NCBI GenBank assembly: GCA_963768855.1
Contig: CAVYJM010000012.1
Location: 29,451-93,450, forward strand
Length of the DNA stretch: 64,000 nucleotides
Source of the DNA: an uncultured Thermoplasmata archaeon
GTDB taxonomy: Archaea; Thermoplasmatota; Thermoplasmata; RBG-16-68-12
Reading direction: 5' to 3'
The translations under genes were made by a program, and so were the position numbers. The notes beneath the pieces are model-generated. The model saw only the letters and a program-made list of their open reading frames with translations, did not search any database and was not told where the DNA came from. Shown piece after piece: positions 8,375-36,648 of this stretch. How positions within the stretch are numbered: the stretch's first letter is position 1; each line of letters opens with the position of its first letter.

Positions 8375-9830
8375 ATGGACAGCGGTCGAGTGCGCGCAAT
8401 CCTCGAAGGGATCGAAGGCCACCAGGAGGCGTCCATGTCCTCGGAGGAACGGGGTGTCCTCGTGACGCAAGGCCTGGTGAAGAGCGTGGACGCTCCCACG
8501 CGGGACCGGTGGACCGCGGGCGTCGCCAACCTCGTCGCCTTGCGGGACCGGGTCCGCGATCTGTCGCGGCAGGCGCTCGCGACTCCGGGACCGGACGCGC
8601 CGCCCGAGCTGCGGCAGATGATCGCCAGCCTCGAGGAACTCACCCGGGAGAAGTCGTCCCTCGGCGCCCTCGTCTGGAACGGGCCCACGCAGGAGTACGT
8701 CCAGGTGACGCTCGCGGGCCGGGGCGTCCTGGAGGACCTCAAGACCTGGGAGAAACGGCTCTCGGGTCGGGACTTCGCCCAGTTTCAGCAGGAGCTGGGG
8801 ACGTACCGCGCCGGGCTCGTCGACCTCGTGAACCGCGCCTCGCTCTTGAACCGCAGCCTGACCCTGGACGAGCAGAGCCGCCTGGACGACGAGTGGGCCG
8901 CCGCGCCCATGACGAACGTGGACGTCCGCTTTGCCTCGATGATCCTCGCGAAGCGTCCCGTGAACCCGGGGATGCTCGTCTCGGAGTTCCAGTGGTTCAA
9001 TCATGACACGAACTGGGGGACCTTCAGTCCCGAGGACCGCCTCGTCGCCTCCGCGATCCTGACCTCCCTTCCGTGGGACCCGGCGATCGTCCGGAGCACG
9101 TTCGAGCGGATCCGCATCGCGCTCCAGTACCACGGGATCTCTCCGGAGGACCGGGTCATCGTCGCCGCGTCCCTCGCGGACCTCCAGGAGGGCTGGTGGG
9201 AGCAGGTCTTCTCCCGGATTGACGAGGTCAAGAAGCAGCGTCCCGCTCTGAACTCCCTCCTCGATCTCCGCGCTCGCCCGCTCGCCCTACCCCGTCGCGG
9301 AAGCGCTCGGCCGCTTCGACGGCGCGTTGTCGGGCATGGCTGCGAAGGGCTTCAAGGATGGAATCCAGTTGGACATCGCGGCCTCCCTCCTTGCGTCATC
9401 CCAAGTCCCTCAGGAAGCCCTGGTCGACCGTTTCGCCTACACGTTGTCGAACGTGCAGGGCGCGTTCGATCCCCCGTTCGCGCCCGCCGCGATGCTCGCC
9501 ACGAACCCGCTCGAGCCGAACGAGGCGATCGACGTCTTCCGGGACTGCATCGGGGCCGTGACCCGGATGAGCTTCTTCGACCTCACCCTCGAGATCGAGG
9601 AGCTCGCCCTGATCATGAGCTACGGCGTCGCTCCCCTCGGGACGGGCTACCTGGGCGGGAACCTGCCCCCCGGGGCCGCGCTGCAACCGCCCGCCGCCGC
9701 AATGGCCGCAGCCGTGACGGGCCTCGGGACGTCGTGGTACGTCTGGCACAACTACTTCGTGTACCGCCCGATCGGCCGATACATCGCGACCCATCCGGTC
9801 CACGTGCACACCGTGGCGGCGTTCGGCTAG
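8375..9830 (+). CDS. hypothetical helical-repeat protein, reading frame interrupted by a +1 shift near 9252..9275
   Basis: The ATG at 8375 directly follows the upstream stop. Frame 2 looks coding up to ...KKQRPALNSLLDL, then turns Arg-rich and runs open to 10960 through two opposite-strand genes. Frame 0 is coding from 9252 (…SALARSPYPVAEALGRFDGALSGMAAKGF…) to the stop at 9830 (track ORF 9327..9830). Confidence 0.55.
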
Positions 9831-10693
9831 GCTTTCGGCTCGAACCCGTACAGGCGGTCGCGGTTCGCCTCGAGCTGGTCGACCGCGCGGCCTGCGTACT
9901 CGGCCGCAGTCTGGAGGCGGACGTCGTGTTCCTCGGCCGTGGCCCGGAGGGGCTCGAGCCGAGTCCGCCACTCACGGTCCCGGAGCAGGTGGTGATCGAG
10001 GAGGAGGGTGCGGACGTCCGTGCTCCGCAGGGTCCTCGCCAGGTTCGCGAGGGAATGCTTCGTGTGCTCCTCGGGATAGTTCTCCGGCATGTGGGTCATC
10101 GGACCGTCCACGTAGAGGATCGTCGGGTTCGCGTCCACGAGGAACCCGAGCTGCTCCTTGAGGGGCGGACCCTCCACGTCGCCCGTGTGGACGAAGACCT
10201 CGTCGCCCTCGGCGATGCGCGCCATGACGACATAGCCCAGGGCGTCGTCGTAGCCGTGGGGCACCGCCGGCGAGAACGTGAGCTCCGTCCCACCGAACTC
10301 GACATCGTTCCCGTCCGCGACCTGGATCTCCTTTGGGTACTTCTTGAGCGCCCGGACGAACGCGCTCGCGCGCTCCCGCTGGCTGCGGTTGATATGGAAC
10401 TTGCCGTCCTTGAGGAAGGCCACCTTGCCCTTGTAGATCGACGGGGCGTCCGGATTGTGGTGGTCGTAGTGGTAATGACTCACCGTCAGGACGTCCGCCC
10501 TCTTGGCTGCTTCCTTCACGCCCCGCCAGAGTTCCTTCTGCCGCTCGTCCTCCGTCGGGTGCGGCGGGAGGTCGTATCGCCAGGGAGCGAGCCGGACGCC
10601 CGGGTCCAGGAGGATCGTCACGTCCCGCGTCTCGACGAGGGTGGCCATGGACCGCGCGCCGAGGCTGTCCGCGGCGAGGGGCGTGACCTTCAT
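9827..10693 (-). CDS. metallo-beta-lactamase-fold protein, archaeal UPF0282-like
   Basis: Start at MKVTPLAADSLGARSMATLVET (an ATGA overlap with the upstream gene). HYHYDHH metal motif and VHTGD. About 290 aa, typical for the archaeal UPF0282 family. Confidence 0.7.
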   Translation of the reverse strand: MKVTPLAADSLGARSMATLVETRDVTILLDPGVRLAPWRYDLPPHPTEDERQKELWRGVKEAAKRADVLTVSHYHYDHHNPDAPSIYKGKVAFLKDGKFHINRSQRERASAFVRALKKYPKEIQVADGNDVEFGGTELTFSPAVPHGYDDALGYVVMARIAEGDEVFVHTGDVEGPPLKEQLGFLVDANPTILYVDGPMTHMPENYPEEHTKHSLANLARTLRSTDVRTLLLDHHLLRDREWRTRLEPLRATAEEHDVRLQTAAEYAGRAVDQLEANRDRLYGFEPKA

Positions 10694-11472
10694 CGGATCA
10701 CCGCTTCGCCCCACACTTGCTTCCGCACGCGGTGGAAGCCGAGCGACGCGGTGAGCTCGAGCGACGGCAGGTTGTCCGTCTTCACATGGAGCGCGGGGAT
10801 CTTGCCGCGGTCAAGAATATCCTTCGTGAGGGCCGAGGACACGGACCTCGCGTACCCCTTGCCCCGGTGGCCCTCGAGCACGTGCAGGAATCCCATCATG
10901 GACACCCGCGGCGTCTCGAGGTGGGTGAACGCCCACGCGACGGGCTTGCCCTCCTCGTAGACCGCATAGGCGTGGCCTGCCTGGATCCGCTCTCGGACGT
11001 ACTCCGCGGCCCGGTCCCAATCGGGGTCCCAGACCTTGCCGACGAGCTCGGCCCACTCCGGTCCCAGGGGCCGGACGTCATGCCGCACTGCGTCACGGAA
11101 GTCCTTCGGATCGAGTTCGAAGAGCCAGAAGACGCCGCCGTCCAATTCGGAGGCGCGGGGCTCCACCAGGGAGAGCATCCACTCCTCGCCCAGATGGAAG
11201 AAGCACGGCCCGGACGGCCAGGCGGGCAGGACCTCCTGGGCCGCCCTCGGGTCGGAGGCGTACAGGGCAATCCCCGCGGCGCCGGTGGCCCACTCCGGCC
11301 GGACCACACCGAGGACGGCCTGCGGCGGCTCTCCGTCGACGTAGACCTCCTTCTCGCCCTCCATCTCGAAGCTGCGATACCGGGCGACCGCCGACGACAC
11401 GGGGTCTTGGTCGAGGAACGCCTCGACCGCGGCGCGGTCCTTCGTCCGGTGTGGCGGCGTAGGGGGTGGCAT
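10690..11472 (-). CDS. GNAT-family N-acetyltransferase
   Basis: The C-terminal half has a GNAT core (AYAVYEEGKPVAWAF...GFLHVLEGHRGKGYARSVSSAL...ASLGF). ATG 11472 is preferred over TTG 11487. Its stop overlaps the start of the MBL gene. Confidence 0.7.
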   Translation of the reverse strand: MPPPTPPHRTKDRAAVEAFLDQDPVSSAVARYRSFEMEGEKEVYVDGEPPQAVLGVVRPEWATGAAGIALYASDPRAAQEVLPAWPSGPCFFHLGEEWMLSLVEPRASELDGGVFWLFELDPKDFRDAVRHDVRPLGPEWAELVGKVWDPDWDRAAEYVRERIQAGHAYAVYEEGKPVAWAFTHLETPRVSMMGFLHVLEGHRGKGYARSVSSALTKDILDRGKIPALHVKTDNLPSLELTASLGFHRVRKQVWGEAVIR

Positions 11473-12273: not shown

Positions 12274-12837
12274 ATGACCCAAGTCCAGCGCATTAAGACG
12301 AAGGTCTGCCTCGTCGGGGAGGCCGCGGTCGGCAAGACGTCCCTCATCCGCCGCTATGTGCAGGACGAGTTCGACGACCGCTACATCACGACCCTCGGCG
12401 CGAAGGTCTCGAAGAAGGAGCTGGAGTTCGATCTCCCGGACAAGGACACGAAGGTCCAGATGGACATGACGATCTGGGACATCATGGGCGAGAAGGGCTT
12501 CCGGGACCTCCTGAAGGAGGCGTTCTTCCACGGCGCGAAGGGCACGATCGCGGTCTGCGACCTCACGCGCTACTCCACGCTCAAGGAGCTCGACGACTGG
12601 GTGCAGAGCGTCTTCAACGTGGTCGGGGAGATCCCGGTCGTCTTCGCGATCAACAAGATCGACCTGAAGGACGAGGTCATGATCCTCTACGGGGAGAAGG
12701 AGATCGGGCAGGCCGTGCGCGCGTTCGAGGCGCCGTATTTCTATACCTCGGCCAAGACCGGCGAGAACGTGGAGACGCTGTTCAAGCGACTGGGGTCGAT
12801 GGTCCTCGCGAAGGAGGGCATCGCGACCCCTTCGTGA
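12274..12837 (+). CDS. Ras-superfamily small GTPase (Rab/Ras-like)
   Basis: 187 aa. G1 GEAAVGKTS, switch I YITTLG, G3 WDIMGEKGF, G4 NKID, G5 TSAKTG. Confidence 0.85.
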   Translation: MTQVQRIKTKVCLVGEAAVGKTSLIRRYVQDEFDDRYITTLGAKVSKKELEFDLPDKDTKVQMDMTIWDIMGEKGFRDLLKEAFFHGAKGTIAVCDLTRYSTLKELDDWVQSVFNVVGEIPVVFAINKIDLKDEVMILYGEKEIGQAVRAFEAPYFYTSAKTGENVETLFKRLGSMVLAKEGIATPS

Positions 12838-12916: not shown

Positions 12917-13468
12917 ATGACGGAAACGAAGCACCTCAAGTCCAAGATCTGTCTCGTCGGGGAGAAGGCCGTCGGGAAGACGAGCCTGATCCGCCGCTAC
13001 GTCCTCGACATGTTTGACGATCAGTACATCACGACGATCGGGACGCGGGTCTCGAAGAAGGAGGCGCGGGTCTTCCTCCCCGAGCGCGACCTGCTCGTCG
13101 ACGTCGACATGCAGATCTGGGACATCATGGGCGAGAAGGGCTTCCGCGAGCTGCTCAAGGAGGCCTACTTCTACGGCGCCAACGGCATCCTGGCGGTCGC
13201 CGACCTGACACGCCGCAAGACGCTCGACGACCTCGACGACTGGATCGACGGGGTCGAGCAGATCGTGGGCAAGGTCCCGGTCCTGATCGCGGTCAACAAG
13301 AGCGACCTCGTGTCGAGCTCGCAGTACGGGGAGCGGGACATCGAACAGGTGGCCCGCGCGTTTGATTGCCCCTTCCTCCTGACGTCGGCGAAGTCCGGTT
13401 CGAACGTCGAAGAAGTGTTCCGGCGCATCGGCCAGCTGGTCACGGAATCCCAGCTCGCTCCGAAGTGA
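12917..13468 (+). CDS. Ras-superfamily small GTPase (paralog of 12274..12837)
   Basis: 183 aa. G1 GEKAVGKTS, YITTIG, WDIMGEKGF, NKSD, TSAKSG. Colinear with the upstream paralog. Confidence 0.85.
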   Translation: MTETKHLKSKICLVGEKAVGKTSLIRRYVLDMFDDQYITTIGTRVSKKEARVFLPERDLLVDVDMQIWDIMGEKGFRELLKEAYFYGANGILAVADLTRRKTLDDLDDWIDGVEQIVGKVPVLIAVNKSDLVSSSQYGERDIEQVARAFDCPFLLTSAKSGSNVEEVFRRIGQLVTESQLAPK

Positions 13469-25158: not shown

Positions 25159-25812
25159 ATGGCGGCCCGGGCCCAAGAGGGTCGTGGGATGAGGACCTTT
25201 GTACTGCTCGTAGCGGCAGTGATATTGAGCGTTTCCGCTCTTCCGATGACTGCGACCCCGGCCACGGCAGCCTCAACGATCCCCGAACTCAAACTGACTA
25301 TCCTCGGGGAGCAGAACGGGACCACGTACCAGTTCAGCCCGAGTCGGATCCTCCTGCCGCAGGTCCCGATCCTCATGAACATCACCTTCATCAACAACCA
25401 AACCGCCGGGAGCACGGTCCGGCACACCTTCTCGATCGACAGCTCGGGCGGGAAGACCATCCTCGACTACGACCTCGTCGCCCAGCAGAACGTGACGTTC
25501 GACATTCTGGTCAACTCGATGACGAACATCACGTGGAACGGGACTTCCTTCACGCCGGCCGTCGGGCCGACGGGCGGCATCAAGTTCTACTGCGTCTACC
25601 ACCTCCCGGGCATGGTCGGTGAGCTGACCCTGGCGGGCGCCCCGTCCACGACCGGCACGGAACAGAACGGCGTCTTCCTGCGGGCGTACTGGATCGGGAT
25701 GATCGGGATCGCCGCGATGCTCGTGTGGATCGGCATCAGCTACTACATCATCAAGGCCTCGACTCCCCGCTTCAAGGACAACCGCGAACACCTGAGGAAG
25801 GGTCTTCCGTGA
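25159..25812 (+). CDS. membrane-anchored type-1 (blue) copper protein, sulfocyanin/halocyanin-like cupredoxin
   Basis: Signal peptide (MRTFVLLVAAVILSVSALP; ATG 25189 is an alternative start). Candidate Cu ligands are H in VRHTF and C, H, M in FYCVYHLPGM. C-terminal TM helix YWIGMIGIAAMLVWIGISYYII. Confidence 0.75.
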   Translation: MAARAQEGRGMRTFVLLVAAVILSVSALPMTATPATAASTIPELKLTILGEQNGTTYQFSPSRILLPQVPILMNITFINNQTAGSTVRHTFSIDSSGGKTILDYDLVAQQNVTFDILVNSMTNITWNGTSFTPAVGPTGGIKFYCVYHLPGMVGELTLAGAPSTTGTEQNGVFLRAYWIGMIGIAAMLVWIGISYYIIKASTPRFKDNREHLRKGLP

Positions 25813-26102
25813 CCACGCTGATCCGGAGCGACGCGCCGCGACGGAGCGCCATGGCGGCCGTCGCCATCGCGGGCCTCGTGATCGGCAGCCTCTGGTTCAG
25901 CGCCCTCAGCATCTTCCTCGCCCTCCAGGCCGCCAGCGGGGTCTACCCGAACGACGTGAACGTCTACATGTCCCTCTTCCTCGGCATGGTCTTCGTCTGC
26001 GCGACGGTGGCCGTGGACATCTATCGCAGAGAGTTCATGCCCGACGAGCTCATCCATAAGATCCGGCGGCCCAAGCTGGTCCCGCCGAGGATGTTCCGCT
26101 GA
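25809..26102 (+). CDS. small two-TM membrane protein of the Rieske/cyt b cluster
   Basis: The GTG at 25809 overlaps the upstream stop (GTGA). 97 aa with two hydrophobic helices. No family recognised. Confidence 0.5.
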   Translation: MTTLIRSDAPRRSAMAAVAIAGLVIGSLWFSALSIFLALQAASGVYPNDVNVYMSLFLGMVFVCATVAVDIYRREFMPDELIHKIRRPKLVPPRMFR

Positions 26103-26110
26103 GGTGGTCC

Positions 26111-26893
26111 ATGAGCTGGGAGCAGGAGGAGAAGCAGAAGCGGTTCACCCGGCGCGAGTGGGTGAAGCTCAGCATGACCCTGGGCACGGTCGGTGCCCTG
26201 GGCGGCCTCGGCGGGCTCCTGAACGGGCAGCTCCTGCCGCCCCCGATCCAGCTCAGCGGCGAGGTCCGCGAGGGCCTGTACTACACGAAGTTCCCGACCC
26301 CGCAGTGGTGGAACGACAAGGACGGCACCCCGGTCAAGGCCGCGGACTTCAAGATCTGGGATGGGTCCACGGCGGTCTGGCGCGGGCTCTACCAGAACAA
26401 CCAGCTCCTGCCGGGGACGGGCTTTCCATGCATCGTGATCCGGATTCCCATCGACGCCCCGGAGTTCACCTTCCCGGATGCAGCGACCCTCACCGCCAAC
26501 AGCATCGCGCCGCCGCCCGCGGGATTCGAGTACTATTACGAGGACAAGACGACGGACACCCGCATCGTCGTGTGCTACGACCGTTGCGTCCACCTGTGCT
26601 GCTACCCGGGATGGCACGTCGTGACGAACCCGCCTCCTGGCCGGGACTATGCGGTGCCCCCGCCGACCTACGATGTCTATCACGAGGACCCGATCTACTG
26701 CATCTGCCACGGATCGCAGTACGACCCGCTCCTCCTCACCGTGAACTTCAATCCGCACAGCAACGTGAACTACATCGGGGCCGAGCGGGTCCACGGACCC
26801 GCCCCGCGGGCCCTCGTGGTGATCCCGGTGAAGAACGTGGGCGGCGCCCTGGTCGGGGGCATGCCGAACCCGAACTGGTACGTCTACTGTTGA
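26111..26893 (+). CDS. Rieske [2Fe-2S] protein with twin-arginine signal
   Basis: RFTRREWVKL twin-Arg signal followed by an h-region. Cluster boxes CVHLCC and CICHGSQYD. Confidence 0.85.
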   Translation: MSWEQEEKQKRFTRREWVKLSMTLGTVGALGGLGGLLNGQLLPPPIQLSGEVREGLYYTKFPTPQWWNDKDGTPVKAADFKIWDGSTAVWRGLYQNNQLLPGTGFPCIVIRIPIDAPEFTFPDAATLTANSIAPPPAGFEYYYEDKTTDTRIVVCYDRCVHLCCYPGWHVVTNPPPGRDYAVPPPTYDVYHEDPIYCICHGSQYDPLLLTVNFNPHSNVNYIGAERVHGPAPRALVVIPVKNVGGALVGGMPNPNWYVYC

Positions 26894-26902
26894 GGTGGTG
26901 CG

Positions 26903-27679
26903 ATGGCGTCAGGAGCGTCCGGATCGTTGCGGGAGGACGGCCAGCGCACGGTCTTCGGCTGGTTCAAGACCCGCTTCCCGACCGTGCCGTGGGCCGACCT
27001 GACCCGGAAGGCGCTCGAGACGGACCAGCGGCAGATGCCGCGCAGCCACGCGGAGAAGTACGAGCTCAAGACGATCTGGTACTGGTACCCCCTCTACTGC
27101 CTCGGGGGCATCTCGTTCGTCGCGTTCATCATCCTCACCCTGACGGGGATTATCCTGGGCTTCTTCTACGTCCCGAACGGCGCTTACGTGTACTCGGCGA
27201 CGGGCGGGCTCACGAACGCCGCCTACGACTCGATGACGCGGATCATGACCCAGGTGCCCTTCGGCTACATCGTCCGGGGAATGCACCACTGGGCCGCGCA
27301 CGTGATGATCGCGGCCGTCTTCCTGCACATGTGCCGCGTCTACTTCACGGGCGCGTACAAGAAGCCGAGGGAGCTGAACTGGCTCATCGGCGTCGTCCTT
27401 CTCCTGCTCACAATCCTGTTCGGGTACTCCGGCTACCTGCTCCCGGCCAATGACCTGAGCGAGGGCGCCGCGAACATCGGGATCGAGATGACGCGGGCCT
27501 CCCCGCTCATCGGGGACCAGCTCGCGACGCTCCTCTGGGGCAGCACGAGCACGCTCTCCGGCTACTACATCCTGCGGTGGTACTGGATCCACGTGTTCAT
27601 CTTGCCGTTCGTCGGCGTGGGCCTGATGGTCGTCCACATGGCCCTCGTCTGGATCCAGGGCGTCGCGGAGCCGCACTGA
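26903..27679 (+). CDS. cytochrome b, N-terminal (b6-like) four-helix subunit
   Basis: 258 aa. His pairs HHWAAHVMIAAVFLH and HVFILPFVGVGLMVVH are spaced for two b hemes. YKKPRELNWLIGV motif. Confidence 0.85.
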   Translation: MASGASGSLREDGQRTVFGWFKTRFPTVPWADLTRKALETDQRQMPRSHAEKYELKTIWYWYPLYCLGGISFVAFIILTLTGIILGFFYVPNGAYVYSATGGLTNAAYDSMTRIMTQVPFGYIVRGMHHWAAHVMIAAVFLHMCRVYFTGAYKKPRELNWLIGVVLLLLTILFGYSGYLLPANDLSEGAANIGIEMTRASPLIGDQLATLLWGSTSTLSGYYILRWYWIHVFILPFVGVGLMVVHMALVWIQGVAEPH

Positions 27680-27687
27680 GGTGGGTC

Positions 27688-28998
27688 ATGGAAATCGAGA
27701 AGGTCAAGGAGAAGGTGATGGAGGGCCGGCCGGGCTTCACCCGGCAGTACGGGCCGTCCCGCTCGGACCACCAGCCGGGAATCCCCTTCTTCCCCCAGGA
27801 GATCACCCGCGACGTGGTCGTCTCCTTCCTGCTCATCGCGATCCTCTTCTTCCTGACGGCCGCCGTCGTGCCCGCCCTGGGGCCGCCGCGGGCGGAGAAC
27901 CTCTCCGAGCTCATCGTGCCGGACTGGTACCTCCTGTTCTCCTGGGGCCTCCTGAAGATCGGCGACATCTTCCCGAGCTTCATCCTCGGAGCGGGGACGC
28001 CCCTCGAGACCCAGTTCAACGCGGCGTTCTGGGGGGACATCCTCAGCGGCATCCCGGTCATCTTCCTCCTGGTCCTGCCGTTCCTGGATCGCGGCCGCGA
28101 GGCGCGTCCCGCGAAGGCACCGTTCCGGTCCGCCCTCGGGATCTCCTTCCTGCTCGTCTGGACGTTCTCCGCCTCCCTGTACGCAATCCGCGAGGTCATC
28201 GAGCAGCGGTGGCAGAGCCCGAACGGGGCGACCCTGTTCCCGGACGACGCCCTGAAATGGCTCTTCGTCCTGCCCGCCGTCCTGGCCTTCTTCGCGACCT
28301 ACATCGCGCTGCGGCGCCTCGGGTTCCAGCCGATGCGCAAGTGGCTTGTGCCTGCGACGGTCCTGCCTTTCCTGGTCGTGGCGGCGCAGTCCCTCCTCAT
28401 CCTGTTCGTGCCCGGCTGGCTCGGCCCGGAGGTCATGCCGTACTGGCTTCAGCTCGCGATCGGCCTGCTCATCCTGTGCGCCGCGACCGGGGCGACCGCC
28501 CTTGCGGTCCTCGTCCTCCCCGAATCGACCGCGCGGCGCGTCGTGCATTGGGTCGGCGGGCTGACCCTGCTGGCCTTCGTCGGCTATCTGGTCGGCCTCT
28601 ACTACACGAGCTACCTCGGATACATGTGGGTCGCCACGGTCCTCGACCCGAACTTCAACACGCTCATCCTGCTCCCCGGGTTCGCGGTCGTCACGGCGTG
28701 GTTCGGCCTGCGGCGGCCGTACAGCTCCTACGAGTACCTGCTCAATGAGTGCTACCAGTGCGGCAAGTGCCACACGGTCTGCCCCGTCACGAAGGTGGAG
28801 GACGACGCACTCGGCGGCCTGAACCTCGTCTACAACAGCTTCAAGAAGCAGCACGACGGCGTCCCACTCTGGACGTGCCTCGCGTGCGACGCGTGTAGCG
28901 CGGTGTGCCCGCTCGACATCAAGTACAGCGACTACATCCTCGAGGAACGTTCGAAGGTCCACGCCCGGGCGGCGGCGGACGGAGGTGAACCGAAATGA
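27688..28998 (+). CDS. fusion protein: cytochrome b C-terminal (subunit IV-like) region + additional TM helices + C-terminal 2x[4Fe-4S] ferredoxin domain
   Basis: From ATG 27688. PDWYLLFSWGLLK is the PDWY-type motif of cyt b C-terminal domains. More hydrophobic helices follow, then CYQCGKCHTVCPV ... CLACDACSAVCPLDIK. Confidence 0.7.
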   Translation: MEIEKVKEKVMEGRPGFTRQYGPSRSDHQPGIPFFPQEITRDVVVSFLLIAILFFLTAAVVPALGPPRAENLSELIVPDWYLLFSWGLLKIGDIFPSFILGAGTPLETQFNAAFWGDILSGIPVIFLLVLPFLDRGREARPAKAPFRSALGISFLLVWTFSASLYAIREVIEQRWQSPNGATLFPDDALKWLFVLPAVLAFFATYIALRRLGFQPMRKWLVPATVLPFLVVAAQSLLILFVPGWLGPEVMPYWLQLAIGLLILCAATGATALAVLVLPESTARRVVHWVGGLTLLAFVGYLVGLYYTSYLGYMWVATVLDPNFNTLILLPGFAVVTAWFGLRRPYSSYEYLLNECYQCGKCHTVCPVTKVEDDALGGLNLVYNSFKKQHDGVPLWTCLACDACSAVCPLDIKYSDYILEERSKVHARAAADGGEPK

Positions 28999-29969
28999 TG
29001 ACCACCGACGAGACGGAGTACGGGCCGGGGCGGACGATCCCCCACCCGATGCTCTTCCGCGTGCTGGACAGCGAGGCGGAGGACACGACGGTCCCGGAGA
29101 TCAAGGTCGAGCACAAGTCCGAGTTCGCGTACTACCCGGGCTGCGTCGACTACTACGACATGGAGATGCAGTTCTCCCACGCAAACTACGGGGACACGAA
29201 CCACGGGATCATCTTCGACTCCTCGATCAAGCTCCTGCGCGCGGTCGGGATCGAGCCGATGATCCTGGACCGGTCCTTCATGAAGTGCTGCGGCCACGAC
29301 CAGCTGTGGCAGGGCAAGGTCGACGTCTTCGAGCGGATGCGGGACTACAACACGAAGATCATCCAGATGCTCGGCGTGAAGACCTTCATCACCTCCTGCG
29401 CGGAGGGCTACCGGACGTTCAAGCTCGACTACAAGCTGCCCGGCGTCCGGGTGGTGCACATCACCCAGATCCTCTACGAGCGCGGCCTGCGCGTGCCGCC
29501 CCAGGGGGACAACGCCAAGAAGATCCGTGTGGCCTACCAGGACCCGTGCCGATCCTGCCGCCAGATGCCCGTGGACCCCGTCTACGAGGAGCCGCGGGAA
29601 CTCATCAAACGCGTCGACAACGCGGAGCTCGTCGAGCTCAAGACGTTCCGCGCGGACGCCCAGTGCTGCGGCGTCGCGCAGATGATGTACTGCAACGACA
29701 AGACGAAGGGCCTGACCCGCAAGCGGATGGACGAGGCCGACGAGGTCGGGGCGGACTACCTGCTGACGGCCTGTCCGAAATGCCTCACGCACTTCGGCTG
29801 CCTCCACCACGAGAACAAGTGGAAGCCCGGCGAGGAGCGCCAGAACTACCGGGTGATGGACATCACCCAGTTCCTCGCGGAGCGCCTCCCCGGCGACTAC
29901 CCGTCCGGCAGCAACGTCGACGCGAAGCGCAAGGAGCCGCCGCTTCCGGGCCGGAAGGGAGGCTGGTGA
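28995..29969 (+). CDS. CCG-domain (cysteine-rich) Fe-S protein, HdrB / HdrD C-terminal / GlcF C-terminal-like
   Basis: 324 aa. Two Cys-rich repeats with YPGC...CCGH and DPC..C...CCGV...CPKC. Its start overlaps the upstream stop (ATGA). Confidence 0.75.
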   Translation: MMTTDETEYGPGRTIPHPMLFRVLDSEAEDTTVPEIKVEHKSEFAYYPGCVDYYDMEMQFSHANYGDTNHGIIFDSSIKLLRAVGIEPMILDRSFMKCCGHDQLWQGKVDVFERMRDYNTKIIQMLGVKTFITSCAEGYRTFKLDYKLPGVRVVHITQILYERGLRVPPQGDNAKKIRVAYQDPCRSCRQMPVDPVYEEPRELIKRVDNAELVELKTFRADAQCCGVAQMMYCNDKTKGLTRKRMDEADEVGADYLLTACPKCLTHFGCLHHENKWKPGEERQNYRVMDITQFLAERLPGDYPSGSNVDAKRKEPPLPGRKGGW

Positions 29970-30580
29970 TGGCCGCTCCGGCCGCAACCGCCAACCCACC
30001 CCCCGCGACGCCTCCGCAGCCGGCGCCTCCGTCCAAGCCGGCGACACCCGCCCCCGCGGCGCCCCCGGCTCCTTCCGATCCGCTCGTGGCCTACTACCGT
30101 TCCGTGCGGCAGATGAACTGGGATCTCGCCAAGCAGCGTTTCAAGGACCTCGGCGTCAAGGCGCGGACCCAGGAGTACATCCGCGGCCGCGGCACGACCG
30201 CGATCGTGGACGACGAGGTCTGCATGGGCTGCATGCACTGCTTCGACAACTGCGCCTTCGAGGCGATCAGCGCGCTCGACCGGAAGTTCTCCCTGCCCGA
30301 CTACACGTACACGTCGCGCAAGGCGACGATCATCGTGGAGAACTGCGTCGGGTGCGAGAAATGCGCGATCGTCTGCCCCGTCGACGCGATCAACATGATC
30401 ACGAAGTTCGGCTTCGAGAGCCGCGAGGGCAAGGTCGTCGAGATCGAGAAGCCCGCTCCGCCGAAGCCCCTCGCGCCCCCCGCGCCGCCCGCCGCGCCCC
30501 CGGCGAAGCCCGCGGGCCCCCCGCAGGCCCCGCCCAAGCCCGCCCCGCCGCCGACCCCCGCCCCGAAGGGAGGCGCCTAG
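29969..30580 (+). CDS. 2x[4Fe-4S] ferredoxin-domain protein with Pro/Ala-rich N- and C-terminal tails
   Basis: The ATG at 29969 overlaps the upstream TGA by one base. CMGCMHCFDNC and CVGCEKCAIVCPVDAI. Tails consist of PPPATPPQPAPP and PAPPKPLAPPAPPAAPP. Confidence 0.7.
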   Translation: MAAPAATANPPPATPPQPAPPSKPATPAPAAPPAPSDPLVAYYRSVRQMNWDLAKQRFKDLGVKARTQEYIRGRGTTAIVDDEVCMGCMHCFDNCAFEAISALDRKFSLPDYTYTSRKATIIVENCVGCEKCAIVCPVDAINMITKFGFESREGKVVEIEKPAPPKPLAPPAPPAAPPAKPAGPPQAPPKPAPPPTPAPKGGA

Positions 30581-30916
30581 GTGGCCTCCGCGGCCGAGGG
30601 ATCCGGGACGAGCCCGGTCGTCAAGGCCCGGAAGGCGCCCCGCCTCACGTACAAGCAGGAGATCCAGACGATCCAGAACATGCCGCGGGTCCAGCGCTTC
30701 ATCGTCGTCATGAAGATCGCGGGCGTCTTCCTCGTCGCGATCGGCATTGAGGGGATCGTGACGGCCACGTGGTGGATGGCGGTCCTCTTCATCCCGCTCG
30801 GGGTGGTCGTGTCCATGATGCCCATCAAGATCCGCACGGACCGCTGCATCGCCTGCCGGACGCCTCTGGCGCCGGGGGCGTCGATTTGTCCCGCTTGCGG
30901 AGCTCCTCAGATGTAG
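30581..30916 (+). CDS. small membrane protein with C-terminal zinc-ribbon
   Basis: GTG start directly after the upstream stop. Two TM helices, then CIACRTPLAPGASICPACG. Confidence 0.5.
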   Translation: MASAAEGSGTSPVVKARKAPRLTYKQEIQTIQNMPRVQRFIVVMKIAGVFLVAIGIEGIVTATWWMAVLFIPLGVVVSMMPIKIRTDRCIACRTPLAPGASICPACGAPQM

Positions 30917-31544: not shown

Positions 31545-32975
31545 TCACGGCCGGACGAGCGGTTCGAGGACGTGCGCGGAGTCGAACCGCAGCTTGATCT
31601 CCCGCAGGAACCGCATCCGTTCGAGGTAGGCGGGATCCTCATTCCAGAGGTGCGCCAGGCGAGAGACGAGGACCGCTCCGGGGATCTTCTCGACGACCCG
31701 CACCACGCCCTTCGAGAGGTCGTACATGTGCGACCGGTCCTTGGGATGGTCGAAGAAGGGGAACGCGGAGAAGGTGCCGGACGCACGGAGGGTGCCGTAG
31801 AATCCGACCTTCGAGGCGACCTGCTGGCCGAGCGCCTTCAGGCGCGTCGCGAGGTCTCCCGCCGAGGCGGTCGGGAGTCGGACCTCCCCGACGAACAGGC
31901 TCCGCTCCGCGCGCTTCGCTGCCTTGTCGTACTCCGTCGCGGGGACGTCGAACGGGTTCGGGACCTCCGCGGACTTGACCTTGAAGCCGGCCAGCGCCGC
32001 GTCGAGCGCCTTCTCCCGGCCGGGGAGGCCCGAGGCGGTGCCCGCCAGGGCCACTTGGACCGTGAACGGGTCCGGGACGATTCCGGGCCGCAGAACGCCC
32101 GCCGCCACGGCGTCCGTGACGTGGACCCACGGGACGCGCTGTCCCGTCCGGGAGAGCTTGTCGAGTGCCGCGGAGAGCTTCGCCGGGTCATCGAAGGTGT
32201 AGGTGAGCGTCTTGCGGGCGGGAGGCTTCGGCGCCAGCCGCAGGGCCACCTCCACGGGCACGTAGAACTCCGCGGCGAGCGGGAGGGTCGCGTGGAGGAC
32301 GTCGTATCCGGTCCCGTTGTTCGAGGCTGCCTCGAACCCGACCCGCGTCCGGTGGCCGTAGGCGGAGATCGTCCGCAGGGCGTTCACGTAGGCGCCGAAC
32401 TCCCCGTCGAAGGCGGCGAGGGGCGCGTCCCCCCAGACCGCGTCGCCGATTGCGAAGCCGAGCGGGACGGTCGGCACCACCGGAAGGAGGTGCCCCTTCG
32501 CGAGGGCTTCGTCGTACAGGCGCTTCCAAGGGAGGCCGACCTGCGCGATCGCCGCGTGTCCCTTCTCGGTGAGCTCGAGCCCGGTGTACGCAGAGAAGTC
32601 GACCTGCACGCCGCGTTGCTCGGGGACGAGCCAGTCGAACGTCAGGAGGGTGTGCGGCTTCACCGTGAGTCCGATCTCGCGGTCCTTCCCGACGCCGAGC
32701 TGCGTGCGGAAGTAGTTGTAGTCCGCGGCGTCGAGCCCGAGGTTCAGCGTGCTCTCGGAGCCGTTCAGGACCTGGATCAGCTTCCGCAGGTCCGCGTCGT
32801 CCTTGACCTTGACCGTAACCGCGGGCGTGCGCGTCAGGTCGGCGATGATCTCCCGCGGCAGGACCCGGTCGTTCCGAACGAACAGGGCGTGGATGAGCGC
32901 CTCGCGGATCATCTCCGAAAGGGCGGGGATCTCCGTGGCGGCCTCGATGTAGTTCCAGTCGCGCAGGAGTCCCAT
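31545..32975 (-). CDS. FAD-linked-oxidase-like protein (GlcE-like partner subunit, degenerate FAD motif)
   Basis: 476 aa, immediately downstream of and co-oriented with the FAD oxidase gene. The overall PCMH-type layout appears to lack the GGGT-type motif. The assignment is weak. Confidence 0.5.
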   Translation of the reverse strand: MGLLRDWNYIEAATEIPALSEMIREALIHALFVRNDRVLPREIIADLTRTPAVTVKVKDDADLRKLIQVLNGSESTLNLGLDAADYNYFRTQLGVGKDREIGLTVKPHTLLTFDWLVPEQRGVQVDFSAYTGLELTEKGHAAIAQVGLPWKRLYDEALAKGHLLPVVPTVPLGFAIGDAVWGDAPLAAFDGEFGAYVNALRTISAYGHRTRVGFEAASNNGTGYDVLHATLPLAAEFYVPVEVALRLAPKPPARKTLTYTFDDPAKLSAALDKLSRTGQRVPWVHVTDAVAAGVLRPGIVPDPFTVQVALAGTASGLPGREKALDAALAGFKVKSAEVPNPFDVPATEYDKAAKRAERSLFVGEVRLPTASAGDLATRLKALGQQVASKVGFYGTLRASGTFSAFPFFDHPKDRSHMYDLSKGVVRVVEKIPGAVLVSRLAHLWNEDPAYLERMRFLREIKLRFDSAHVLEPLVRP

Positions 32976-32976
32976 C

Positions 32977-34467
32977 CTAATCCGCCTCCTTGCCCCGCTC
33001 GTACGATCGCACGAACTTGTCCTGGGTCGGCTTGATCCTCCGCAAGAACGCGGCGAGGTCGAGACCGATTCGCATCGCCGGCGGCGGGATGGCCCGGATC
33101 CCCGGGAACTGGTACTTCGTCCACACCTCGATCGTCTTCCCCGGGTTCACCTTCCGCTTCGGGTCGAAGACATCCTTGACGTACGCGGTGTAAAGGGCCG
33201 CGCGGCCGTGCATCGTCCGGAGGTTGAAGACCATGAAGAGGCCGAGCCCCATCGGGTGGCCGCCGAGCTCGAAGGCGGCGTCCCCCATCTTCTTCACGTA
33301 TCCGAGGGCCGTGCCGCCGCTGGGCACCGTGTCGTCCATCAGGACGTAGGGCGCGAGGATCACGGAGGTCGCGTCGATGGGGTGCGCCTGGACCGCGCCG
33401 TTGAGCTTCATCTTGCGGATCAGCTCCCGCGCTGTGTCGCAGGCCTCCGGGAGCTTCGCGAGCGGGACCACGTTGTTCGCGACGATCAGGCCGCGGCTCA
33501 TCCGCCGCGCGCTGTACATCCGGAACCGGTGCTCCCAGAGCGCGTCGGGCTCCGCCTGGGGGCGCTTCGTCCCCTGGTTCTTCGGCGCGAGAGCGTCGAG
33601 GGTCTTCTCCTGGTCCGCGACGTCGTCCTTCGGCCCGGCGAGGCACACGAGGACCAGGTCGGCCGGCTCGGGCGTGTCCGTGCGCAGCGCCCTCTCGAAC
33701 ACGAAGTGATCCTTGTCGAGCAGGGAGATGTGGTACGCCTGGATCCCTGAGTCGACGACCGCCTGGAGGAAGGTCGCGGCCGCCTTCAGGGTCGGGAAGG
33801 CGTACGCGACGGGTTTCATCAGATCGGGTTTCGGGTCCAGCCGGAGGGTCGCGGCGGTCAGGACGCCGAGCGTCCCCTCCGCCCCGAAGAAGAGCGGCGT
33901 CAGGTCCGCGAACTGGCCCCCCGCGTCGCGCGCGAGCGCGGTGCGGAGGACCCGGTTGTCCGGCAGGACGACCTCGAGGTCGCGGACGACCTGGCGGAGC
34001 GCTCCGTTGCGGAAGGCGCCGAAGCCGACCACGTCGCTGTTGATCGCGCCTCCCACCGTGCTCGCCATCGCGTTCGTCGGCATGGAGGGGAGGGTGAGTC
34101 CGCGCGCCTCGACGTACTCGGCGACGTCCTGCCAGGTCGCACCCGCCTCGACGGTCACCGTGCGCGCCTGCGGGTCGAAGGCGCGGATCTTGTTCATCTT
34201 GCGGAGGTCGATCAGGACGCCGCCCCGGTTCGGGACCGATCCGCCGTACCAGCCCGTCCCGCCGCCCCGCGGGACGATCGGGAGGCCCGACTCGTCGCTG
34301 AGCTTCACGATCGCCGCGACCTCTTCCGTGGTCTGCGGCAGGACGACGAAGTCCGGGTAGAGGCGCCACTGCAGGAGCGCAATCTTGGGGAGGGAGGCGA
34401 AGTCGTGGCTGTAGACCATCCGGTCAAACTCGGTCCGGGAGACGCGCTCGGGACCGAGGGTGTTCAC
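32977..34467 (-). CDS. FAD-binding oxidoreductase (GlcD / D-lactate dehydrogenase / FAD-linked oxidase family)
   Basis: 496 aa. LPIVPRGGGTGWYGGSVP is the FAD-binding PCMH motif. The C-terminal FAD-oxidase domain is present. Confidence 0.8.
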   Translation of the reverse strand: MNTLGPERVSRTEFDRMVYSHDFASLPKIALLQWRLYPDFVVLPQTTEEVAAIVKLSDESGLPIVPRGGGTGWYGGSVPNRGGVLIDLRKMNKIRAFDPQARTVTVEAGATWQDVAEYVEARGLTLPSMPTNAMASTVGGAINSDVVGFGAFRNGALRQVVRDLEVVLPDNRVLRTALARDAGGQFADLTPLFFGAEGTLGVLTAATLRLDPKPDLMKPVAYAFPTLKAAATFLQAVVDSGIQAYHISLLDKDHFVFERALRTDTPEPADLVLVCLAGPKDDVADQEKTLDALAPKNQGTKRPQAEPDALWEHRFRMYSARRMSRGLIVANNVVPLAKLPEACDTARELIRKMKLNGAVQAHPIDATSVILAPYVLMDDTVPSGGTALGYVKKMGDAAFELGGHPMGLGLFMVFNLRTMHGRAALYTAYVKDVFDPKRKVNPGKTIEVWTKYQFPGIRAIPPPAMRIGLDLAAFLRRIKPTQDKFVRSYERGKEAD

Positions 34468-35965: not shown

Positions 35966-36532
35966 TCAGAAGGAGTACCGGTCCTCGGTCCAGGGGTCCG
36001 CCGTGTTGCTGTAGCCGCGGACCTCCCAGTAGCCCAGCTGGTCCTCTTTGGTGAATGTGATTTGCCGCACCCACTTCGCACTCTTCCAGGCATATCGCTT
36101 AGGCACGAGGAGCCGCACCGGGCCGCCGTGCTCGATGGGGAGCGGGTTCCCGTCCCAGCGGTACGTCATGAGGACGTCGGAATCGTAGAGCACACTCAGC
36201 GGATGTGACGTCGTATAGCCGTCCCCGCAGGTGAAGATCGCGTACTTCGCGGCGGGACGGACGCGGGCCCGCGATGCAAGCTCCCGGACTGTGACGCCAT
36301 CCCACGTGTTGTCGAAGGTCGTCCAGCCTGTGACACAGTGGAAGTCCGAGGTCACAGCCGCACTCGGCAGGGCGAGGAACTCCTCGTAGGTCAGGCGCAG
36401 CGGTGCATCGACCTCACCGTCCACTCGGAAGTCCCAGGTCTTCGGGTCGAACCGCGGGACGACGCCGAGGTCGAGGCGCGGCCACTTCCGGACCGTGTGC
36501 TGCCCCGGCGGGAGCCGCCTCGGATCGGCCAT
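35966..36532 (-). CDS. molybdopterin-binding oxidoreductase domain protein (sulfite-oxidase/YedY-like, short archaeal form)
   Basis: From [20 protein letters not shown] (Moco Cys motif), [16 protein letters not shown]. Confidence 0.75.
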
Positions 36533-36648
36533 CTGGGAAATCCAATGGAACCCCCGAATATAAATGGTTGCAGACTCCCGTCCGGGGTGGTGCACAAGGC
36601 CTGTTTCTAGGGAGAAACGGGGCCGCTCCTTACCGTGCGCGCCAAAGG

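Follow-up and report, generated by a model that had tools for sequence, protein, structure and literature searches.

A subunit IV–ferredoxin fusion and a separate double-CCG protein in the Rieske/cytochrome b operon of an uncultured Thermoplasmata archaeon

The stretch of DNA analyzed here (the window) comprises 64,000 nucleotides from an uncultured Thermoplasmata archaeon of the GTDB lineage RBG-16-68-12 (assembly GCA_963768855.1, contig CAVYJM010000012.1, positions 29,451 to 93,450 of the forward strand) and has a G+C content of 66%. Within an operon for a Rieske/cytochrome b complex it was found to carry two adjacent genes on the plus strand. The first (27688..28998) encodes a protein of 436 aa in which subunit IV, the C-terminal part of cytochrome b, is followed by four extra transmembrane (TM) helices and an HdrC-type 2x[4Fe-4S] domain. 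The second (28995..29969) encodes an HdrB-like double-CCG protein of 324 aa, predicted to be cytoplasmic and without a signal peptide. An earlier note on this DNA had read the pair as a split HdrD/GlcF architecture, with the ferredoxin (Fer4) half fused to the C-terminal cytochrome b subunit and the CCG half left as a separate gene, and this is borne out by Pfam searches, by the cluster motifs and by conservation among homologues. The operon is set between A-type ATPase genes (20–24.8 kb, minus strand) and a Nuo operon (from 36.7 kb).

The fusion gene starts with the ATG at 27688, which lies 8 nt past the stop codon of the preceding cytochrome b gene (TGA, 27677–27679) and is preceded by a Shine-Dalgarno-like GAGGTGGG. 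The resulting start Met is invariant among the aligned homologues. A longer, GTG-initiated open reading frame (ORF) beginning at 27577 in the mechanical ORF list was rejected as the start of the gene, as the homologues share the Met at 27688. The TGA stop of the fusion gene (28996–28998, in the context ...AAATGATG...) and the ATG of the CCG gene (28995) both lie within CCGAAATGATGACC, giving the 4-nt ATGA overlap which the earlier note had described and which is of the kind found at translationally coupled junctions. The G+C content at third codon positions is 0.89 in the fusion gene and 0.97 in the CCG gene, a strong coding signal.

In Pfam searches, the fusion protein was matched by Cytochrom_B_C (PF00032) at residues 74–154, with 22.7 bits against a cut-off of 20.7 (marginal, although above it), and by Fer4_8 at residues 352–411 (8e-9). 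The marginal assignment to subunit IV is backed by the agreement of three other comparisons, namely the NCBIfam QcrB family, which matches residues 21–205 (3.4e-7), a profile of the fusion family against QcrB in the PDB (4.6e-5, with PDVY of QcrB aligned to PDWY), and a weak Foldseek match of the AlphaFold2 (AF2) model to QcrB (E 0.017). On the basis of PF00032, the QcrB alignments, hydropathy and the AF2 helices, the subunit IV-like region was delimited to 27775..28317 (approximately residues 30–210). It contains an IPFFPQE segment on the n side, helix E, the motif VPDWY, the ef surface helix and helices F, G, and H. The PDWY motif reported by the earlier note is thus present, but at residues 77–81 for VPDWY (27916–27930) and not at the start of the ORF. 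In the homologue alignment P78 to Y81 are invariant and V77 nearly so, the IPFFPQE segment is invariant or nearly so, and in the AF2 model the amphipathic ef helix that follows PDWY spans residues 80–94. The position of the gene is likewise that of a subunit IV, as it directly follows a four-helix, four-His cytochrome b6-type gene in an operon that includes a Rieske protein, and the same order is found in all relatives.

Eight TM segments were predicted from hydropathy (residues 43–61, 112–130, 149–167, 188–206, 223–241, 258–276, 285–303, and 323–341), and the helices of the AF2 model match this set. The further hydrophobic helices mentioned in the earlier note are therefore real. The last four (TM5–8, residues 217–341, 28336..28710), which were delimited by hydropathy and are modeled with a predicted local distance difference test (pLDDT) above 90, are specific to this lineage, poorly conserved in sequence, and absent from those relatives whose membrane part has four TM helices. 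Foldseek found no structural relative for them in the PDB. As no conserved His was detected in TM5–8 in the homologue alignment, these helices would be without heme ligands. The loops on the N-terminal side contain 5, 4, and 2 K/R residues, followed by RR past TM8, while those on the opposite side contain 0–2. From the hydropathy profile, with its eight TM helices, and from the positive-inside rule, both termini are predicted to lie inside and the Fe-S domain to be cytoplasmic, the outcome that the topology check suggested in the earlier note had been meant to decide; the AF2 helices agree. An extracellular Fe-S domain was rejected because of the hydropathy profile, the charge bias and the lack of a signal for twin-arginine translocation (Tat).

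The HdrC/GlpC-type dicluster ferredoxin domain (28741..28920, Fer4_8 8e-9) begins about 13 residues past TM8 and is predicted to lie in the cytoplasm. Its two cluster motifs, CYQCGKCHTVCP (residues 355–366, 28750–28785) and CLACDACSAVCP (residues 397–408, 28876–28911), are both of the CxxCxxCxxxCP type, as stated in the earlier note, and are separated by a helical insert of ~30 residues, which is the HdrC-type layout. All eight Cys are kept in 34–35 of the 35 homologues, and the domain as a whole is nearly invariant across them. Among NCBIfam families the domain was matched by GlpC (3.7e-8), QmoC (7e-6), and HdrC (8e-6), and it was also matched to HdrC in the PDB (1.5e-4).

The CCG protein was matched by CCG (PF02754) in two stretches (1.3e-22) and no Fer4 domain was found in it by Pfam. 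The claim of two CCG repeats without a ferredoxin domain thus holds at the level of Pfam, except that the first repeat lacks its fifth Cys. The reference pattern consists of two copies of CX31-39CCX35-36CXXC (ten Cys). The first motif (29142..29408) reads C50-x47-C98C99-x35-C135-x2-G138; its four Cys are kept in 33/33 sequences, and in the same 33/33 sequences of the split lineage the fifth is replaced by Gly (SCAEGY; residues 135–138, 29397–29408), whereas CAEC is invariant in the fused relatives described below. The second motif (29547..29783, C185-x38-C224C225-x34-C260-x2-C263) is complete, with all five Cys kept in 33/33. The CCG protein is the most conserved of the operon, at 77–96% identity compared with 50–93% for the fusion protein and 31–91% for the Rieske protein. 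Its best NCBIfam match is the C-terminal part of TfrB (1e-27), followed by LdhH, GlpC, HdrB, and SdhE; the TfrB score is 97 bits against an equivalog cut-off of 385, and the protein stays below the NCBIfam equivalog cut-offs of HdrD, GlcF, and HdrB. It was also matched to HdrB in the PDB (5e-6). Neither a signal peptide nor a twin-arginine motif was detected in the CCG protein or in the ferredoxin encoded downstream of it, in contrast to the Rieske protein, which carries one.

Searches of a set of 5.8 billion proteins returned 207 homologues of the fusion protein, with more than 100 full-length clusters of ~436 aa at 53–91% identity. In a scan with one genome per species, the fusion gene was found in ~40 metagenome-assembled genomes (MAGs) of uncultured Thermoplasmata. 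The carriers include “EA_” MAGs from Angelo soil, SMAG soil MAGs, RBG_16_67_27 and RBG_19FT_COMBO_69_17, sources which match the Candidatus Angelarchaeales (GTDB order RBG-16-68-12) of Diamond et al. (2022; PMC9038741). The separate CCG gene was aligned directly downstream of the fusion gene in 33 loci, and gene order is identical in every sufficiently long locus of the order. It runs from AtpI and AtpH (minus strand) through cupredoxin, DUF7318, Rieske, N-terminal cytochrome b, fusion, CCG, ferredoxin and a small Zn-ribbon protein (plus strand) to an Lrp regulator (in some genomes), GlcE-like, GlcD-like, TatA, TatC and sulfite-oxidase-like genes (minus strand) and NuoA (plus strand). The split is genuine, as the separate CCG gene directly follows the fusion in all sufficiently long loci. 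A missing stop codon or a frameshift between two genes, which the earlier note had named as a possible source of the fusion, was rejected, as both ORFs and their boundary are kept in 33–35 independent genomes and the fusion itself recurs in ~40 species.

Relatives in which the pair forms a single polypeptide were also found. A HMMER search of 1.84 billion representatives gave 187 matches at E ≤ 1e-3, among them single polypeptides of 543–626 aa with Cytochrom_B_C, Fer4 and CCGx2, and a profile built from such fused proteins retrieved at least 1,485 proteins at E ≤ 1e-10. The search for Cytochrom_B_C plus Fer4 architectures suggested in the earlier note was thus productive, with CCGx2 in the same chain in some of the proteins. 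Fused forms with four TM helices occur in other Thermoplasmata and in one Geothermarchaeales MAG. The abundant form of Marine Group II (MGII) has 920–970 aa, with PDWY at residue 82 and six TM helices followed by Fer4 and CCGx2, and includes a predicted external insertion of ~240 aa between TM5 and TM6 (seen in locus L050). In this locus, from an MGII Poseidoniaceae genome, positions 8001–10763 encode a single protein of 920 aa; variants of 1,334–1,349 aa exist, and a GshA (glutamate-cysteine ligase) gene lies near the L050 fused gene. A minimal form, from a MAG labeled “Halobacteria archaeon” (L054), consists of subunit IV and Fer4 only, without CCG. Most relatives examined have 4 or 6 TM helices (one, P0146, shows seven peaks), against 8 in the window, and as these counts are mostly even the Fe-S part would consistently be cytoplasmic.

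When concatenated, the two products from the window align end to end with the fused proteins, at 42–51% identity in the CCG part and 40–55% in the Fer4 part, and the boundary between the two genes maps to a ~19-residue insertion within the linker that joins Fer4 to CCG. Given this collinearity with single polypeptides of relatives, the two products are read here, in the Rosetta-stone sense, as probably one functional unit. By the same token, the CCG protein almost certainly docks on the Fe-S domain, since in related archaea the two are joined in one polypeptide with the CCG part at its C-terminal end. The earlier note's proposal that the CCG subunit is tethered to the membrane subunit is thus strongly supported by the occurrence of subunit IV, Fer4 and CCGx2 in one chain; the wiring to the b hemes and quinone that the note added to it, together with its direction, is still an inference. 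The “domain swap” of HdrD/GlcF which the note envisaged did not hold up. The most parsimonious history would instead start from a subunit IV-HdrD-like fusion, widespread in Thermoplasmatota, that underwent fission within the linker between Fer4 and CCG in an ancestor of the Angelarchaeales, with a gain of four TM helices, since fused forms span several orders and the split form only one. The traits accompanying the split are these four extra TM helices, the Cys-to-Gly change in the first CCG motif and the ATGA junction. A split between Fer4 and CCG is in itself normal, as in HdrC/HdrB and LutB/LutA. In the AF2 model of one fused relative (P0327), the CCG part matches HdrB (E 1.5e-7, TM-score 0.63) and a model of LutA (TM-score 0.75) and the membrane part superposes on QcrB, with the inter-domain geometry not confirmed.

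A core operon recurs in the relatives, composed of DUF7318, a Tat-exported Rieske protein, a cytochrome b6-like protein and subunit IV::Fer4(::CCG); in four of six loci (L049, L050, L054, and L055) the next gene encodes a small 2-TM protein bearing a G-x-E motif. Around this core the cytoplasmic add-on genes vary. In L049 and L055 these encode a poly-Fer4 + FlpD/MvhD protein of ~510 aa; in L053, HdrC-like, HdrB-like, HdrA-like and MvhD genes are found with flanking multiheme cytochromes c, and L052 carries FrhB-like, HdrA-like and MvhD genes, a second HdrD-like gene, GcvH and a GlcD-like gene. An RnfB-like ferredoxin is the add-on in MGII and in the window. The operon regions concerned in L052 (3707–10710) and L053 (8629–13487), which come from a Geothermarchaeales MAG and another archaeal MAG, encode an HdrA-like protein of ~1,010 aa. 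Their composition suggests that flavin-based bifurcation meets a Q-cycle complex here. As the add-ons vary around a recurrent core, the module would therefore be a general adaptor between the n side of the Rieske/cytochrome b complex and cytoplasmic Fe-S/flavin redox enzymes. The Fe-S domain itself is the conserved adaptor, since the minimal form keeps subunit IV and Fer4 without CCG, and this is best explained if a soluble redox protein docks on it.

Four genes of the operon lie upstream of the pair. The four-helix cytochrome b6-type subunit (26903..27679, plus strand; PF00033 1e-34) has four heme-ligand His with the b6-type spacings H-x13-H and H-x14-H. Its best PDB match is cytochrome b6 (1.5e-36), in which its YCLGG is aligned to FYCLGG of b6 (Cys35, heme cn). 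C66 and the heme-ligand His are kept in 33/33 sequences, and YC[L/F]GG is present in five of six operons from distant relatives. A CxGG motif binds the covalent heme cn/ci in b6f and in the Bacillus and heliobacterial complexes. The motif therefore makes this subunit a putative binder of covalent heme cn, which in an archaeal complex would be notable by itself.

The Rieske [2Fe-2S] protein (26111..26893, plus strand) has a twin-arginine signal (TRREWVK) and the motifs CVHLCC and CICHGS, of which the Cys and His are kept in 34/34 sequences; a weak match to TIGR01416 was obtained. Between it and the first gene of the operon lies a small DUF7318 membrane protein (25725..26102, plus strand; PF24002 4e-11), which occupies the same position in L049, L052, L054, and L055 and is a conserved companion of these archaeal Rieske/cytochrome b operons. 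The first gene (25159..25812, plus strand) was read from its sequence as a membrane-anchored type-1 cupredoxin with a signal peptide, a C-x2-H-x3-M copper site and a C-terminal TM helix. Its position is kept in relatives, and it is likely the electron acceptor of the Rieske protein. For 23 of 30 loci, Diamond et al. (2022; PMC9038741) reported a plastocyanin-like blue copper protein (BCP) upstream of the Rieske gene. The metal-binding motifs of the cupredoxin and the Rieske protein are intact, but neither protein has a Pfam match at E ≤ 0.01, and automated annotation will miss both genes because Pfam recognizes neither.

Downstream of the CCG gene lies the gene for an RnfB-like 2x[4Fe-4S] ferredoxin subunit of 203 aa (29969..30580, plus strand; NCBIfam matches of RnfB/NuoI type). 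The core of this protein spans approximately residues 64–150 and the region that aligns in relatives approximately residues 36–160; the long Pro/Ala-rich low-complexity tails at both ends align poorly and may be flexible tethers. It is kept in relatives' operons, and the ferredoxin that occupies this operon position in MGII shares 37% identity with it (E 4e-13). The last gene of the operon (30581..30916, plus strand) encodes a small 2-TM protein with a membrane Glu motif (G-x-E) in its first helix and a C-terminal CxxC...CxxC zinc ribbon, for which the Zn-ribbon matches are below the Pfam cut-offs. The protein is kept in relatives, and 2-TM G-x-E proteins also end the operons of L049 (11317–11535), L050 (11154–11456), L054 (8021–8329), and L055 (10413–10664), the zinc ribbon being present in the lineage of the window only. 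The likeness to the MGII counterpart is confined to the short motif, as BLAST of the window protein against that of L050 was not significant. The 2-TM protein may be an unrecognized subunit of the complex.

Beyond a regulator gene in some genomes, the operon converges with a pair of FAD-linked oxidase genes on the minus strand (31545..34467; FAD_binding_4/FAD-oxidase_C), one GlcE-like (31545–32975) and one GlcD-like (32977–34467). The GlcD family score of the latter (6e-52) is below the cut-off, the FAD_binding_4 domain of the former is degenerate, and no GlcF-like gene was found beside the pair at this locus. The two oxidases are possible, though unproven, donors of electrons to the CCG/Fer4 arm. 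The GlcE-like family has 177 matches, of which all those listed (≥59% identity) and every named one come from Thermoplasmata/Methanobacteriota MAGs. Neither an HdrE-like nor an HdrA-like gene was found in the operon region examined (20–38 kb), and the parts of the window scanned with Pfam yielded no terminal oxidase gene; genes for copper membrane monooxygenases (CuMMO) were not specifically looked for.

On this basis it is proposed, with about even confidence, that the pair are subunits of a b6-type Rieske/cytochrome b complex (complex III) in an aerobic archaeon from soil, most likely one of the Angelarchaeales, and that their Fe-S arm is a cytoplasmic side door for electrons, with inward flow preferred. 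The Fe-S domain, the CCG protein, the RnfB-like protein and the 2-TM subunit would together constitute an n-side Fe-S arm of cytochrome b, beside heme bH, the putative heme cn and the Qi quinone site, through which electrons would pass between the low-potential chain of complex III and the cytoplasm. In the inward direction, reduced ferredoxin would, by way of the RnfB-like subunit, reduce heme bH/cn and then quinone at Qi, and a thiol couple oxidized at the CCG cluster would be a possible second donor. The resulting quinol would be oxidized at Qo and its electrons passed through the Rieske protein and cupredoxin to a terminal oxidase, so that complex III would be both entry and exit of the chain, an archaeal counterpart of the ferredoxin-heme cn-plastoquinone route proposed for b6f.

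Inward flow is favored because the minimal form has the dicluster domain alone, because the RnfB-like subunit is conserved, and because CCG chemistry of the TfrB type oxidizes thiols, the CCG part of TfrB working in the thiol-oxidizing direction. It is further favored because ferredoxin-dependent enzymes are abundant in Angelarchaeales and their complex I is without NuoEFG, the NADH module (Diamond et al., 2022; PMC9038741). The same study independently suggested the entry of ferredoxin at complex III, and described these archaea as non-methanogenic obligate aerobes, either aerobic heterotrophs or putative ammonia oxidizers. In MGII, genes for cytochrome b and Rieske proteins without a canonical bc1 were reported together with an orphan RnfB (Tully, 2019; PMC6336850).

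Several observations weigh against the proposal. The direction of electron flow is unconstrained by the sequence and unproven, and that a cluster lies within electron-transfer distance of heme bH/cn is a presumption. In the AF2 model of the fusion protein the membrane part is confident and the Fe-S domain has a pLDDT below 40, so that no cluster geometry can be read from it. The cluster content of the CCG protein is uncertain, as its first motif is one Cys short, the attachment of heme cn is deduced from a motif, and Arg207 of b6 is not conserved in the cytochrome b subunit (Trp in the alignment). A double-CCG protein under such strong conservation would be superfluous in a simple ferredoxin port, and the relatives with HdrA, MvhD, HdrBC, and FrhB point to more complex chemistry, such as flavin-based bifurcation. 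Finally, the closest membrane analogues, HdrDE and DsrMK, run outward, from the membrane to CCG-catalyzed disulfide or trisulfide reduction.

By analogy with HdrDE, outward flow would be thermodynamically feasible and is a serious rival, although considered unlikely on balance. The complex would then be a quinol-driven disulfide (or ferredoxin) reductase powered by bifurcation at Qo. One Qo electron would pass to the Rieske protein and cupredoxin and the other, with similarly low probability, through bL, bH, the fused [4Fe-4S] clusters and CCG to a cytoplasmic disulfide. This route would be like that of HdrDE or DsrMK, except that bifurcation at Qo supplies the driving force. The Fe-S arm would take the place of quinone reduction at Qi or bypass it, which is equally improbable. 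The order membrane-Fer4-CCG is that of HdrD, with its known path from heme b through [4Fe-4S] to CCG, and the CCG fold is HdrB-like. While the first CCG motif is incomplete, the second is complete and invariant, and the very strong conservation of the CCG protein suggests catalysis; its best family score, on the other hand, is for TfrB, in which the CCG part oxidizes thiols, and the minimal relative does without any CCG. HdrB, HdrC, HdrA, and MvhD genes lie in the same operon in relatives, and other cytochrome b proteins are fused to Fe-S/MvhD modules (Kao and Hunte, 2014; PMC4122944). No candidate disulfide substrate is known, however, for archaea reported to be non-methanogenic obligate aerobes, and in an aerobic heterotroph reduced ferredoxin and NAD(P)H would be ample for thiol reduction.

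The Fer4 domain and CCG protein could also serve as the Fe-S subunit (GlcF/GlpC-like) of the neighboring GlcD/GlcE-like FAD dehydrogenase, which is judged quite unlikely, as is the form of this idea in which a 2-hydroxy-acid dehydrogenase (D-lactate/glycolate type) is docked on complex III and feeds quinone or heme b. The GlcD/GlcE-like genes are convergent with the operon in every sufficiently long locus without a GlcF-like gene there, but synteny is frozen over the whole 20-kb region (ATPase, Tat, Nuo), so that adjacency is of little weight, and the genes are on the opposite strand with an Lrp regulator between in some genomes. GlcF and GlpC share the make-up of Fer4 plus CCGx2 and weak GlcF/GlpC matches were obtained, yet the CCG protein has no GlcF match at E ≤ 0.01. 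A GlcD-like gene also ends the operon region of L052, where it has a Fer4 + CCG gene of its own, and in MGII and other Thermoplasmata no GlcD/E neighbors accompany the subunit IV-Fer4-CCG module. In its lineage restriction the GlcE-like family appears to equal the split architecture; its search shows lineage restriction only and neither proves nor excludes the idea. Least probable is a non-catalytic role, as a redox sensor or assembly scaffold, or an artefact of annotation or assembly. The low AF2 confidence for the Fe-S domain, the degenerate first CCG motif and the Cytochrom_B_C score barely over its cut-off would fit such a view. An artefact is excluded by the conservation of both ORFs and their boundary in 33–35 independent genomes and by the strong coding signal; 8 + 9 cluster-ligand Cys are conserved (34–35/35 and 33/33), which counts against a non-catalytic role, and the conserved accessory ferredoxin (including that of MGII) and the Fe-S/MvhD/Hdr genes of relatives fit an electron-transfer chain better than a sensor.

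Among known systems, b6f and the menaquinol:cytochrome c reductase (b6c) are like the proposed complex in their split four-helix cytochrome b with b6-type His spacing and YCLGG (CxGG), in a separate subunit IV with a P[D/E]WY Qo motif, in the Tat-exported Rieske protein, and in a soluble or anchored cupredoxin acceptor that resembles plastocyanin. Unlike in those complexes, subunit IV in the window has 8 TM helices rather than 3 and ends in a predicted cytoplasmic 2x[4Fe-4S] domain, cytoplasmic CCG and RnfB-like subunits would be added, and cytochrome f/c1 is absent. The known C-terminal fusions of subunit IV or cytochrome b, from Bacilli and other lineages, are to cytochrome c domains on the p side rather than to n-side Fe-S domains (Kao and Hunte, 2014; PMC4122944). 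The same authors described a “PDWF-FeS clade” in Magnetospirillum and Turneriella, in which cytochrome b is fused to 4Fe-4S and MvhD. It is similar in joining a cytochrome b with a Qo motif to a cytoplasmic Fe-S module, and partners of MvhD type recur in L049 and L055 (Fer4 + FlpD). It differs in being bacterial and in having an unsplit cytochrome b with PDWF and no Rieske gene found in the cluster (PMC4122944), whereas the window has a split cytochrome b, PDWY, Rieske protein and cupredoxin, and an attached CCG module.

HdrDE and DsrMK/HmeCD share with the window system a quinone- or phenazine-reactive membrane b-type cytochrome with cytoplasmic Fer4 and CCG, Fer4 being membrane-proximal in sequence. 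The membrane partner in the window is a Rieske/cytochrome b complex with a Qo site instead of a di-heme anchor of the NarI/HdrE type, Fer4 is fused to the membrane subunit with CCG separate, so that Fer4 and CCGx2 are not joined in one soluble polypeptide as in HdrD, and the scores are far below the HdrD and HdrB cut-offs. The organism, moreover, is reported to be an aerobe, without a known heterodisulfide substrate. QmoC combines an HdrC-like dicluster and a membrane domain of cytochrome b type in one polypeptide and works with HdrA-like flavoproteins; HdrA/MvhD genes are likewise found in the operons of L052 and L053. The window protein scores 25.7 bits against the QmoC cut-off of 300 and its membrane part has no conserved His. 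In QmoC the Fe-S part is N-terminal to an HdrE-like heme-binding domain, while here it is C-terminal to a heme-free subunit IV with the hemes on a separate b6 subunit, and QmoABC has no Rieske protein. As membrane partner, domain order and scores all differ, the window system resembles HdrDE, DsrMK, and QmoC in working plan and belongs to none of them. For GlcF, the Fer4 domain alone gives a match (4.9e-4, 19 bits against a cut-off of 333). The HdrB fold is shared with HdrC/HdrB, LutB/LutA, TfrB, GlpC, GlcF, and SdhE, and the Fer4/CCG split with HdrC/HdrB, but the first motif in the window has four of five Cys and an x47 spacer, and Fer4 is carried by a membrane subunit of complex III.

In the searchable literature no description was found of the subunit IV::Fer4 fusion, of its fused-CCG relatives and their breadth, or of the link to a heme-cn motif. 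On Rieske proteins with CCG/HdrD fusions, only two remarks were found, namely the “orphan RnfB” of MGII and one sentence in which “hdrD-like” and “rnfB-like” genes beside complex III are briefly noted (Diamond et al., 2022; PMC9038741). Rieske/cytochrome b complexes are usually seen as closed Q-cycle machines in which quinone reduction at Qi is the sole reaction on the cytoplasmic side. A conserved family of subunit IV proteins bearing a cytoplasmic HdrC/HdrB-type module would show that the cytoplasm can draw electrons from the low-potential chain or supply them to it, a reading favored by the covalent fusions, by TM counts that are mostly even and by the invariance of the cluster ligands. Taken further, complex III would be a ferredoxin (or thiol):quinone oxidoreductase besides a quinol oxidase, a hard-wired version of the ferredoxin-plastoquinone reductase route debated for b6f; this is possible but rather doubtful. 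If true, the HdrA/MvhD-bearing relatives would represent a direct junction of flavin-based and quinone-based electron bifurcation. The proposal bears on the re-oxidation of ferredoxin in archaea whose complex I is reportedly without an NADH module, on the ferredoxin-to-heme-cn route of cyclic electron flow in b6f, on the evolutionary link between the Hdr-type enzymes of methanogen relatives and aerobic respiration in Thermoplasmatota, and on the identity, in abundant marine archaea, of the “MGII-specific complex III” and the “orphan RnfB.” The complex is also a well-defined target for structural work on enrichments or heterologously expressed material.

Other genes of the window were noted in passing. 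The tatA and tatC genes lie near the operon and adjoin a minus-strand gene (35966–36595) for a protein of 209 aa with a sulfite-oxidase/MsrP-like molybdopterin domain. This ORF overlaps the mechanically called TatC ORF by ~130 nt, and the tatC start is probably further downstream. Further away, an archaeal Nre protein (3433–4695) and an ammonium transporter (50290–51516; Amt, 3e-123) are encoded, and two tandem genes (12274–12837 and 12917–13468) for small GTPases of the Ras/Roc family (Pfam Ras 3e-30 and 3e-32) are unusual for an archaeal genome.

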